Shown one piece after another: positions 48,379 to 58,783 of a stretch of DNA of 64,000 nt. Below the pieces are notes generated by a model. That model did no database searches and was not told the DNA's origin. It saw nothing but the letters and a program-made list of their open reading frames with translations. Location of the stretch: contig CAWHIM010000037.1 of the NCBI GenBank assembly GCA_963829245.1, positions 60,427 to 124,426 on the forward strand. The letters run 5' to 3'. Position numbers and translations under genes: made by a program. This DNA is from an uncultured bacterium. Lineage in GTDB: Bacteria > Desulfobacterota > Deferrimicrobia > Deferrimicrobiales > Deferrimicrobiaceae. Each line of letters starts with the position of its first letter. Positions within the stretch are counted from its first letter, which is position 1.

Positions 48379-48453
48379 GCGGGCGTAACTCAGTGGTAGA
48401 GTGCGACCTTGCCAAGGTCGAAGTCGCGAGTTCAAATCTCGTCGCCCGCTCCA
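48379..48453 (+). tRNA. tRNA-Gly(GCC)
   Basis: GCGGGCG acceptor, CGACC-TTGCCAA-GGTCG anticodon arm, GTTCAA T-loop, CCA end. Confidence 0.97.
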
Positions 48454-48495: not shown

Positions 48496-48596
48496 TTCGG
48501 CTGCGCGCCTCGCAGGGCGGGCTCGTTCGTGGCTCGCCGTGCGTGAACCTGCACGGCTGCGCTTTACCTCACTCGCCCCCTCCTGCGGCGCCGCCG
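48496..48596 (+). repeat. Long-hairpin palindromic repeat, copy 1
   Basis: Collinear match to 49975-50083, with single-base deletions. Confidence 0.88.
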
Positions 48597-48654
48597 GACC
48601 CTCCCGTTGTGCGCCTTCCGTGGTGATTGTGGCAGAATGGGCTGCGGGAGGGAG

Positions 48655-49962
48655 ATGGCGCGTGCAGGGAAGGCCGGCCCGAGCGGGTCGGCTGGTACTT
48701 CTACGATTTCGCGAACTCGGCCTTCTCCACGACGGTGGTCACGGTGTTCACGGGGCCGTATCTGACCTCCGTCACCCGCGCCGCCGCCGACCCCGCGGGG
48801 TACGTTCATCCTCTCGGCATCCCCGTGCTGGCGGGGTCGTTCTTCCCGTACGTCGTCTCCCTTTCCGTCTTCTTCCAGGTGCTCCTCCTGCCGCTGCTGG
48901 GGGCGATCGCCGACTACTCCCGCCGGAAGAAACCGATGCTGTTCCTCTTCGCCTACGCGGGATCCGCCGCGACGGTGGGGCTCTATTTCCTCGAAGGGAC
49001 GCGGTACCTGCTGGGTGGGGGGTTGTTCCTGCTGGCCAACGTCTGCTTCGGGGCCTCGGTGGTCTTCTACAACGCCTGGCTGCCGGAGATCGCGGCTCCG
49101 GAGGACCGCGATTCCGTCTCCTCCGTGGGGTGGGCGCTCGGGTACCTCGGGGGCGGGGTCCTCCTTCTCCTGAACCTGGTCCTCTTCTCCCGTGCGCGCG
49201 ACTTCGGCCTGACGAGCGGAGAGGCGGTCCGGATCAGCCTCGCCTCGGCGGGGGCGTGGTGGGCCGTCTTCTCCCTCGTGCCGCTCGCCACGATGCGCCG
49301 CCGGGAGGCCGCGCGGCCGCTTCCGGCGGGGGAGGGACTCCTCGGCACGGGATTCCGCCAGCTGCGTCGCACGTTCGCGGAGGCGAAGGGCCACCCGCAG
49401 CTCCTGCTGTTCCTCGGCGCCTACCTGCTCTACAACGACGGGATACAGACGGTGATCGCCCTCTCGTCCCAGTTCGGCCAGGAGGAGCTGGGCCTCTCCG
49501 TTTCGACGCTGACCACGGCGATCCTCATGGTCCAGTTCGTCGCCTTTTTCGGGGCCCTGCTCTTCAACGCGTTCGCGAAGCGGGTGGGGGCGAAGGCGGC
49601 GGTGGCGATCAGTCTGGTCCTGTGGACGGGGACGCTCGTCTACGCCTACGCCGGGCTTCGGGATGCGGCCGGGTTCTACGCGATGGCGGCATGCGTGGCC
49701 GTCGTCCTCGGCGGGAGCCAGGCCCTCTCCCGCTCCCTCTTCTCGCGGATGATCCCGGTCGGGCGGGAGGCGGAGTACTTCTCCCTGTACGAGGTGAGCG
49801 AGCGGGGGACGAGCTGGCTGGGGCCCCTCTTTTTCGGGCTGGCGCTGCAGTTCACGGGAAGCTACCGCGTCGCGATCCTCTCGCTGGCGGTCTTCTTCAT
49901 CGCGGGGCTCGCCCTCCTGCTGCGCGTGGACGTCGCGAAAGCCGAGGCGGAAGCTAAGCTGA
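48655..49962 (+). CDS. MFS transporter, UMF1/Atg22-like (start and stop affected by probable indels)
   Basis: GWYFYDFANSAF, P.LGAIAD, FYNAWLP.I, GWALGYLGG, YNDGIQTVI, GGSQALSRSLF. Confidence 0.88.
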
Positions 49963-49974
49963 CGGGCTTCCCGG

Positions 49975-50083
49975 TTCGGCTGCGCCGCCTCGGAGGGCGG
50001 GGCTCCGTTCGTGGCTCGCCGTGCGATGAACCTGCACGGCTGCGCTTTACCTCACTGCGCCCCCCCTCCTGCGGCGACTCCGC
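49975..50083 (+). repeat. Long-hairpin palindromic repeat, copy 2, between convergent genes
   Basis: Nested stems CGCCGC/GCGGCG, GGAGGGCGGGGC/GCCCCCCCTCC and GCCGTGC/GCACGGC. Confidence 0.9.
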
Positions 50084-50099
50084 TGTTGCTGCCCCTGCC

Positions 50100-50796
<697 letters not shown>

Positions 50797-50804
<8 letters not shown>

Positions 50805-55506: not shown

Positions 55507-55594
55507 TGGTGCCCGGGGTGGGAATCGAACCCACACGGCTTATTCAGCCTCGGGATTTTAAGTCCCGTGCGTCTGCCAGTTCCGCCACCCGGGC
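55507..55594 (-). tRNA. tRNA-Leu(TAA)
   Basis: GCCCGGG acceptor, CGGGA-CTTAAAA-TCCCG anticodon arm, long variable arm, CCA end. Confidence 0.96.
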
Positions 55595-55643: not shown

Positions 55644-55718
55644 TGGAGGCGGCACCCGGATTCGAACCGGGGGATAAAGGATTTGCAGTCCTCTGCCTTA
55701 CCACTTGGCTATGCCGCC
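55644..55718 (-). tRNA. tRNA-Cys(GCA)
   Basis: GGCGGCA acceptor, GAGGA-CTGCAAA-TCCTT anticodon arm, GTTCGAA T-loop, CCA end. Confidence 0.96.
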
Positions 55719-57591: not shown

Positions 57592-58713
57592 ATGAAGGTA
57601 ACGCTGTCGGTGATCAAGGCGGACATCGGTTCCATCGGGGGGCACATCCGGCCGAGCGCGAAGCTGCTCGAAACGGTGCGGTCGAAGGTTGCCGAGCTCG
57701 GGAAAGGGCTCCTGATCGACACCTACATCGGTTTTACCGGGGACGACGTGGCGATCCTGATGTCCCACACCGGGGGGACGGGAAACCCGAAGGTCCACAA
57801 GCTGGCGTGGGACGCCTTCATCGCAGGGACCGCGGTGGCGAAGGCCCAGGGGCTCTACGGCGCGGGCCAGGACCTGCTGAAGGACTCGTTCTGCGGCAAC
57901 GTGAAGGGGATGGGCCCCGCCGTGGCGGAGATGGAGATCGAGGAGCGCCCCAACGAGCCGTTCGTCCTGTTTGCGGCGGACAAGACCGACCCGGGAGCGT
58001 ACAACCTGCCATCCTACCTCGGCTTCGCCGACCCGATGTTCTCCTCCGGCCTCATCCTCTCCCCGAAGGTGGGGAAGGGGTTCACCTTCCGCATCATGGA
58101 CGTCGCGAACACGGATGGGGACAAGGTGATCGACCTCTCGGCGCCCGAGGACCTCTACGACATCGCGGCGCTGCTGCGCGACCAGGAGCGGTTCGTCGTC
58201 GAGTCCATCCGTTCCCGCGCCACTGGAGAGGTCGCCGCCGTGGTCAGCACCACCCGGCTCCACAACATCGCGGGGAAGTACACCGGGAAGGACGACCCGG
58301 TGATGCTGGTCCGGACCCAGGGGAACTTTCCCGCCACGGGGGAGGTGCTCGCCCCCTACACCATCGGCCACCTGGTCGCCGGCTTCATGCGGGGAAGCCA
58401 CCATGGGGCGCTCATGCCGGTGCCGCGGAACACGGGAACCTCCTTCTTCGACGGTCCGCCGATCGTCTCGGCCCTCGCCTTCAGCGTGAAGGAGGGGCGG
58501 TTCACCGAGCCGGCCGACGCGTTCGACCACCCGTACTGGGAGTACGTAAGGGCGCGGGTGTCGGCCAAGTCCGAGGATCTTCGCCGTCAGGGGTTCTTCG
58601 GCCCCGCGATGCTGCCGTACAGCGAGCTCGAGTACGGCGGGATCGTGGAACGGATGAAGGGGATGGAGCCGAGGTTCCGCATGCTCGGGGGAAAGGAACC
58701 CGTCGAGGCGTAG
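57592..58713 (+). CDS. fbp: Bifunctional fructose-1,6-bisphosphate aldolase/phosphatase (FBPase class V)
   Basis: TLSVIKADIGSIGGH, GDD, GLYGAGQDLL, ADKT.PGA.N, RLHNIAGKYTGKDDP, FDGPP, QGF.GPA.L..SELEY. Confidence 0.95.
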   Translation: MKVTLSVIKADIGSIGGHIRPSAKLLETVRSKVAELGKGLLIDTYIGFTGDDVAILMSHTGGTGNPKVHKLAWDAFIAGTAVAKAQGLYGAGQDLLKDSFCGNVKGMGPAVAEMEIEERPNEPFVLFAADKTDPGAYNLPSYLGFADPMFSSGLILSPKVGKGFTFRIMDVANTDGDKVIDLSAPEDLYDIAALLRDQERFVVESIRSRATGEVAAVVSTTRLHNIAGKYTGKDDPVMLVRTQGNFPATGEVLAPYTIGHLVAGFMRGSHHGALMPVPRNTGTSFFDGPPIVSALAFSVKEGRFTEPADAFDHPYWEYVRARVSAKSEDLRRQGFFGPAMLPYSELEYGGIVERMKGMEPRFRMLGGKEPVEA

Positions 58714-58749
58714 CCGCGGACGGATCCCCGCCCTCCGAGGCGGCGCAGC
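58707..58749 (-). repeat. Partial inverted copy (left arm) of the long-hairpin repeat
   Basis: Reverse complement of 58712-58749 matches 49979-50016 at 35 of 38 nt. Confidence 0.8.
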
Positions 58750-58783
58750 GGGAGTCTGAGTATCTATAGAAGGAGGGGGCGGC

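Follow-up and report, generated by a model that had tools for sequence, protein, structure and literature searches.

A long-hairpin repeat of the Deferrimicrobiaceae as the conserved core of a probable IS630-type MITE

The window considered here, a stretch of 64,000 nucleotides from an uncultured bacterium of the Deferrimicrobiaceae (contig CAWHIM010000037.1), carries two copies and a fragment of a long-hairpin repeat, referred to below as the rod. The question that this locus raises is what kind of element the rod belongs to, what carries it from site to site and what keeps it there. The cores of copies 1 and 2 occupy 48499..48595 and 49978..50083 on the plus strand, where the sequence-only reading had placed them, and align in direct orientation at 89% over 111 columns, gaps counted. 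The third copy, reported from 58707, is real and partial, as described (58712..58756, minus strand; a remnant of the left arm with the initial ~38 nt of the core), but its orientation is inverted relative to the other two (38 nt, 92%); it adjoins the stop codon of the FBPase gene at 57592-58713. Copy 2 adopts the fold that had been proposed, with an RNA minimum free energy of -58.4 kcal/mol (z -3.8) and of -60.4 on the reverse strand (z -3.8), and copy 1 reaches z scores of -2.1 on the plus and -3.9 on the minus strand. With DNA parameters the z scores are only -1.4 to -2.5 (-2.0 and -2.3 for copy 2).

The two full copies flank a host gene that lies outside the element, an ATG22-like MFS transporter frame (48639..49949, plus strand; PF11700, E=9e-103; the span is that of the frame rather than of a mapped start). 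Copy 1 lies ~45 nt downstream of tRNA-Gly(GCC) (48379..48453, plus strand), so that the claim that every copy sits just 3′ of a gene is right as to position but the gene here is a tRNA gene, not a protein gene. The order in relatives is tRNA-Gly, a G+C hairpin with a T-run, and then the rod. Compared with genome G017, the segment 48455-48600 has lost most of the tRNA-Gly terminator hairpin, and copy 1 shows several 1-nt gaps against its G017 orthologue, its loop being one base short of the one quoted earlier; these gaps may reflect decay or assembly error. To the right of copy 1, a remnant of the right inner arm of a 254-bp element remains (48596..48622, plus strand), its terminal inverted repeat (TIR) lost. 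Copy 2, which is near the family consensus, lies between the MFS gene and a convergent host gene for a livF-like ABC ATPase (50100..50804, minus strand), whose stop codon is at the insertion site. Its left junction keeps CTAAG (49954..49958, no strand), the likely original target as judged from genome G018 and a contig of run X20, followed by a decayed remnant of the left inner arm (49963..49977, plus strand); on the other side, as comparison with the G017 orthologue reveals, deletion and decay have left a remnant of the right inner arm (50085..50099, plus strand). In this assembly the MFS frame runs through copy 2 without a stop, whereas a TGA stands just before the rod in G017, G013 and G014; relative to G017, one extra base within 49950-49962 removes the MFS stop codon, and this difference, too, may be an assembly error or real decay. 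Elsewhere in the window, tRNA-Leu(TAA) and tRNA-Cys(GCA) lie at 55507-55594 and 55644-55718, both on the minus strand.

The repeat is not confined to this locus. In this genome (2.59 Mb, 58% complete), a profile HMM (nhmmer) matches 40 times at E<1e-12 and, at the looser cutoff of E<=0.01, at 46 loci, and a reversed-genome control gave nothing better than E=2.8; these 40 full copies bear out the expectation of many copies genome-wide and rule out a local duplication. Near-identical flanks at C2:4345/C32:199, at C16:17791/C19:26644 and between contigs C22 and C23 point to duplication of segments or a mixture of strains in the assembly, in which case a few of the 40 may be duplicates. Together with its associated modules, the rod accounts for 127 loci and 0.8% of the genome. 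With a covariance model, the rod was detected in 26 of 27 further genomes of the genus and, across the family, in 51 of the 69 others; matches per genome ranged from 0 to 55 or more, also within the genus, and 146 sampled genomes of the phylum outside the family gave none. BLAST recovered one divergent copy in G025, from another family of the same class. No Rfam model matched beyond its gathering threshold in the window except for 3 tRNAs, and none matched at E<=0.5 in 5 rod loci. The description of the repeat as lineage-specific, non-autonomous and ERIC-like agrees with this high copy number, with the restriction to the family by the covariance model and with the absence of an Rfam match. Plasmid and phage collections gave no match to the rod, and viral contigs gave one match each for the core and for the TIR pattern. 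A literature search, ISfinder lying outside it, yielded no published description of the rod family; titles and abstract openings revealed nothing on Deferrimicrobium repeats, and the literature on IS630 elements with TWA or 3-bp duplications, or on structured single-stranded DNA repeats, yielded nothing on the rod family.

The nature of the element becomes visible at its ends. The 107-nt rod is the centre of a non-coding element of 251-255 bp with 30-bp TIRs, inserted at C-TWA-G, and the whole 254-bp element folds as a single rod. Additional modules recur in the sequence around the copies, as does a terminal motif arranged in inverted pairs; a scan of the genome contigs placed this motif at no fewer than 80 loci. 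Among the matches listed, the intact forms are the 251-255 bp element with the central rod, a sister form of 161-164 bp and longer mosaics. A TIR match bounds twelve rod copies at both ends, and 8 of the twelve measure 251-255 bp; long flank homology was absent among the 13 two-ended loci tested. TWA stands on both sides of 17 of 38 two-ended short elements, and the two triplets are identical in 16 of these 17 (p=0.0003), mostly within C...G; this agreement stems mostly from the sister element, and among two-ended rod copies an identical TWA is found on both sides in only 2 of 12 (L118, L007). The target duplication is thus 3 bp (TWA) rather than TA. The earlier statement that no TIR with target duplication could be seen holds for the three eroded copies of the window only, since intact members of the family show both. 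The sister MITE (L060, L062, L071, L104, L106, L108 and others), which combines the same TIRs with another rod interior, is present both in this lineage and under record titles naming Nitrospirota or Nitrospirae; in G136 this interior is also nested, free of TIRs, inside the rod.

An autonomous partner with the same ends exists. Among the matches listed, L127 spans 1,256 bp and carries the same TIRs around HTH and DDE_3 frames that match NF033545 (IS630), and L175, from the same genus, measures 1,271 bp and is flanked by C-TAA and TAA-G; both elements (1.26-1.27 kb) encode HTH and DDE_3 in two overlapping frames, and the ends of L175 agree with those of the MITE at 25-27 of 30 positions. A search of 70 family genomes gave an IS630 match in 8. 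Close relatives with TIRs (66-74% amino acid identity; L175, L177, L178, L179) are present in 4 of the 27 other genomes of the genus, and another in one genome of a rod-less genus; no IS630 of the matching group was found in this genome, which is 58% complete. In G017, an IS630 copy adjoins a full rod-MITE, one TAA being common to both. Metagenomic IS630 relatives were two-ended in 66 of 80 cases, and TWA stood on both sides in 58 of the 60 with readable flanks, its central W agreeing in only 27 of the 58. This agreement reached 14/19 on long-flank contigs vs 17/45 otherwise (p=0.013), and C preceded and G followed the element in all 64 IS630 elements selected for TWA on both sides. The disagreement at W may reflect chimeric joining between elements present in many copies. 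Judged from its sequence, the rod element has the attributes of an IS630-derived MITE, namely TIRs, a target duplication, an autonomous partner and a short, multi-copy, polymorphic body that lacks a transposase, and it has very probably been mobilised by an IS630 transposase.

The target also bears on where the copies lie. CTWAG, of which this genome holds 212 occurrences, contains a stop triplet on either strand, TAA in one reading direction and TAG in the opposite one, and this is likely the reason why rods lie 3′ of genes; it offers a simple explanation for repeats that sit at stop codons. In this genome, 33 of the 34 classified copies are 3′ of at least one gene, and 13 of the 34 occupy convergent spacers, compared with 43/441 in the background.

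The comparison of filled and empty sites shows that the element is polymorphic. Anchored on the MFS gene, 26 loci orthologous to the copy-2 site comprise 7 empty sites, 5 with a rod, 13 with other inserts and 1 that is rearranged; in G018 a TIR-bounded rod begins exactly at the C-TAA of this site, and in run X20 one contig joins across copy 2 with CTAAG kept. At the copy-1 site, anchored on the tRNA gene, a rod is present in 3 of 19 loci. From 115 rod copies in the fetched loci, 54 could be mapped to this genome by both flanks, 38 were unmapped and 23 were short-flanked; of the mapped copies, 25 are shared with this genome, 14 correspond to empty sites and 15 to other sequence. At no empty site was a single clean TWA with fully matching flanks found, between-species junctions being eroded. 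At least 2 further, unrelated hairpin repeat families occupy the same spacers, at the tRNA-Gly 3′ flank (L014, L027, L028) and at the copy-2 site (L015, L029, L030), which marks both spacers as insertion hot spots. Erosion is also evident at the termini of the copies themselves. The 37 copies of this genome away from contig edges comprise 25 without a TIR, 11 with one and 1 with both, against a TIR match in 3 of 400 random windows. Across 116 copies, retention is 99% for the core (96.7% identity) and 22-44% for the arms (84-87% identity), a comparison to be read with the fact that the copies had been found by their core.

In other genomes the core stands free of this vehicle. In genus g13, TIRs were found at 0 of 30 rod loci, and they are absent at 16 rod loci of G243, G247 and G248 and present at 5 of 14 in G250 and G258. 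IS630 therefore cannot explain the spread of the core in g13 and in the three other genomes, and since a TIR-less core exists in another genus, the MITE has, on these sequence comparisons, probably captured an older hairpin module.

The reading that brings these observations together is that of an IS630-type MITE with a captured, conserved and flipping hairpin core, to which, as a whole, we assign a probability of roughly 60%. An IS630-type MITE would have captured the hairpin module, and an IS630-family transposase would have copied the resulting element in trans to CTWAG sites. TIRs and arms would then likely have eroded as the core stayed; the core likely flipped in place through template switching between its arms during replication, and selection for a putative orientation-independent binding site likely kept it.

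The flips are seen when orthologous copies are compared. Of 25 orthologous pairs, 11 carry the core in opposite orientations, and these fall at 9 of the 16 sites compared; this ratio of 14:11 (same:opposite) supersedes one of 17:11 to which some loci had contributed a second copy. Several sites share the same arms, down to the deletion junctions, and differ only in the reversed core. The break points vary: by eye, about 5 sites break at the terminal 3-bp CGG/CCG stem and 2 inside the next stem, and the remaining ones comprise 1 in the outer arms and 1 without a clear break point. Excerpts of two papers describe arm homogenisation and spacer inversion as outcomes of template switching (PMC8604942; PMC8794818). 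In 3-4 of 151 copies one arm has become a perfect inverted repeat. We lean slightly towards replication template switching between the arms as the cause of the flips, although ~5 of 9 flipped sites breaking at the same terminal stem is more than random template switching would predict. The surplus of clean flips over copies with a perfected arm points either to selection that preserves the bulges or to an enzyme specific to the boundary.

An enzyme is also central to another explanation, according to which the rod is itself a mobile REP/REPIN/BIME-like module that a candidate single-strand nuclease or recombinase inserts, in either orientation, at C^G in CCGG-like sites; it would land inside older repeats, the IS630 frame being just one landing place. 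The TIR-less rods of g13 fit this picture, since most often another rod, opposite in polarity, comes after them, and so do the nesting of other modules in the rod at CCGG or GCGC junctions, the many flips that end at the terminal CGG/CCG, the differing modules that fill the same orthologous site and the conservation of the core at 97% against 84-87% for the arms, the copies having been found by the core. Such insertion is, however, difficult to reconcile with the lack of an empty inner frame, that is, arms without a core, which was found neither in 70 genomes (one 28-nt pattern, <=3 mismatches) nor among the arm matches in this genome, or with core alleles that follow the site: position 8 agrees in 22 of 25 orthologous pairs, which are not independent, against 51% expected. 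The candidate enzymes were likewise not found next to the modules. The proposal of HUH/RAYT mobilisation finds no support, as modules occur at 0 of 19 and at 0 of 3 more Y1 loci, this genome has no Y1 match, and the ends of the vehicle match a DDE (IS630) transposase. In the 5 genomes searched, none of the IS110 (2 loci), DUF559 (1) and integrase (28) matches is flanked by modules, one B-module piece lying ~1.2 kb from an integrase match, and among 30 GIY-YIG loci of the genus no small gene is flanked on both sides, one having a 62-bp module piece downstream. The 34 scanned genes between close module pairs of this genome are mostly housekeeping and include no transposase or recombinase; one encodes an SNase-fold protein and 7 have no Pfam match. 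An independently mobile module is thus a tentative and rather unlikely account of the rod. A similarly speculative extension would place the rod in a new class of structured DNA modules with G/A-rich loops on one strand, bound, inverted and nested by their own putative recombinase, which would hitch-hike in IS630 MITEs in some genera and spread without them in others.

For the IS630-type MITE with a captured core, what has to be accounted for is the persistence of the hairpin. When copies were found via the neighbouring gene, core divergence was 38/1174 (3.2%) vs 401/2412 (16.6%) at fourfold sites in 13 non-independent pairs, so that the core is about five times better conserved than nearby silent codon positions; an earlier estimate of 3.5% vs 17.7% used top BLAST hits and was discarded as biased. 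Identity to a single query is 91-100% for 35 full-length copies in G017. This is the reverse of what would be expected of a selfish MITE, as the transposition ends decay and the centre is kept, in either orientation, at about one fifth of the silent-site divergence, which points to a second pressure on the hairpin. The bases of the internal loops are nearly invariant across genera, with pyrimidines on one strand and G/A on the other, as would be seen if the bulges formed a protein-binding site, a possibility raised from the sequence at the outset. Evidence from base pairing is more ambiguous. An alignment of 57 sequences across genera showed two-sided changes in 11 of 28 pairs (23 cells vs 2.2 when shuffled), yet one slid control, with 62% of its cells paired, gave 30 two-sided cells against the 23 of the true structure, and compensatory changes can arise by template switching itself according to an excerpt of PMC8794818. 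Covariation had been weak (5 cells) on a first, mostly within-genus alignment, and RNAalifold recovers only the apical stem.

Uniformity of this kind could also arise without function, if gene conversion among the ~40 copies and self-correction of the hairpin homogenised the core and the arms were deleted. Module swaps and partial replacements occur at orthologous sites, recombinants with a perfected arm exist, and orthologues (3.5%) are barely closer to each other than random paralogues (4.5%), all of which would be expected under neutral homogenisation. Against this, template switching would be expected to erase the bulges, and both bulged arms persist in 124 of 151 copies; the unpaired bases of the internal loops are invariant to the degree described above, the major allele falls below 90% at only 8 of 107 core positions, and site-specific alleles are inherited. 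Neutral homogenisation is therefore improbable, and the balance tips modestly towards purifying selection on a putative protein-bound hairpin, rather than gene conversion, as what has kept the core.

Less probable still is a domesticated 3′-UTR RNA structure that would govern how stable the upstream mRNA is or how it is processed, as is reported of ERIC in Yersinia: the location of the copies 3′ of genes and in convergent spacers, the stable RNA folds on both strands and the ERIC and NEMIS precedents (in an excerpt of PMC2229807) speak for it, but the CTWAG target accounts for the 3′ position, cores flip at the same gene, copy number within the genus varies from none to dozens, and the rod shows no orientation bias, whereas in that source orientation is crucial for ERIC. 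As the main identity of the rod, the strand-specific 3′-UTR RNA of the sequence-only reading is accordingly set aside, there being no U-tract terminator either: no terminator-like signal (short stem plus T-run) was found on copies 1 and 2. Relative to transcription, the rod is oriented 14:6 in this genome (p=0.12) and 23:21 in relatives; an apparent bias of 22:6, obtained with crude gene calls, fell to these values with a better strand call. Wobble pairs number 13 on one strand and 8 on the other, an asymmetry uninformative for strand preference that lends the RNA reading no weight. Rod depth was high in three RNA-library contig sets (~40-fold in X2), as expected of multicopy DNA, these contigs carrying no strand or end information, and the reads of one further run left the rod uncovered. 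An orientation-independent RNA role of the rod may nonetheless exist.

Taken as an IS630-type MITE with a captured core, the rod element can be set beside several known systems, here as they are described in the excerpts cited. The nearest in kind is RUP of Streptococcus pneumoniae, a 107-bp MITE associated with IS630-Spn1: both are non-coding, intergenic and hairpin-forming, and in both the TIRs are similar to a resident IS630, which is proposed to act in trans as their mobiliser (PMC2229807, PMC3049150). A 2007 review noted, in the excerpt, that few bacterial repeats had been found to have TIRs matching an insertion sequence and named RUP as the exception (PMC2229807). RUP uses TA targets, whereas the rod element has C-TWA-G and 30-bp TIRs. 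Unlike RUP, its interior is a stack of exchangeable GC-rich modules, with a core that outlives the TIRs and is found inverted. ERIC, which we take to be the element named MITEEc1, offers a second comparison. MITEEc1 is listed under IS630 in ISfinder according to an excerpt of bioRxiv 2024.01.18.576219, and ERIC/IRU (127 bp, enterobacteria) shares with the rod element a long imperfect palindrome, TIRs, a target duplication and a position 3′ of genes (PMC2229807, PMC3184786). This likeness is one of description, and ERIC differs in its 7-bp TIRs, TA ends and orientation-dependent effect on mRNA. BOX of S. pneumoniae (boxA/B/C) and BIMEs are, like the rod family, composites of modules in varying number (PMC3049150), but BOX modules stand in tandem, whereas those of the rod family nest in one another's stems and swap at one site.

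REPs are defined, in the part of PMC3733652 consulted, as palindromes of 20-40 bp with a GTAG or CGTC tag at one end; the rod, 107 nt long and ending in GGC...GCC, was rightly said to lack the GTAG end of classic REPs. The REP/REPIN repeats with RAYT of Pseudomonas fluorescens SBW25 resemble it as intergenic hairpins, and paired rods of opposite polarity are common in g13, the unit in the genus of the present genome being the TIR-bounded element. Excerpts on REPINs describe conserved ends and a variable spacer (PMC3116915), whereas in the rod element the centre is conserved and the ends decay. Chunjie, a MITE from Geobacter uraniireducens (178-235 bp), and QMITE2 of Coxiella also have many partial copies without TIRs or direct repeats (excerpt of PMC10969869), a likeness by description. 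NTS/SRM repeats with Ssn GIY-YIG nucleases are high-copy hairpins as well, recognised as single-stranded DNA in the excerpt of PMC11893778; in the rod genus, by contrast, no GIY-YIG gene is flanked on both sides by modules. The rod element is, then, probably a variant of the IS630-type MITEs, set apart by its conserved core and its 3-bp target. With the ends, the target and an autonomous partner identified, a single IS630 transposase is enough to test directly whether a long-hairpin repeat can be mobilised, and the rod lends itself to the question of whether bacterial repeats turn into host sites.

Several other repeats were noticed in passing. Small stand-alone GIY-YIG genes (L267, L269, L275, L276, L278) follow a hairpin repeat family distinct from the rod, seemingly downstream of a tmRNA- or tRNA-like end, and are possibly Ssn-type systems unrelated to the rod. 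Another repeated intergenic family of ~19 copies in this genome (C5, C8, C9, C36, C37, C42), also unrelated to the rod, precedes or overlaps a small ORF. Arrayed repeats, presumably attC-like, occur on contigs C8, C35, C36 and C41 of this genome and at L177 (G007:C31), where IS630 copies are inserted at CTAAG within such a repeat. Finally, at the MFS/livF junction of the copy-2 site orthologue in G004 (L014:487-1374), a gene for a 295-aa protein of metallo-beta-lactamase fold (PF00753) lies between decayed copies of the rod-MITE TIRs, and this locus is possibly a passenger-carrying, non-autonomous IS630 derivative.
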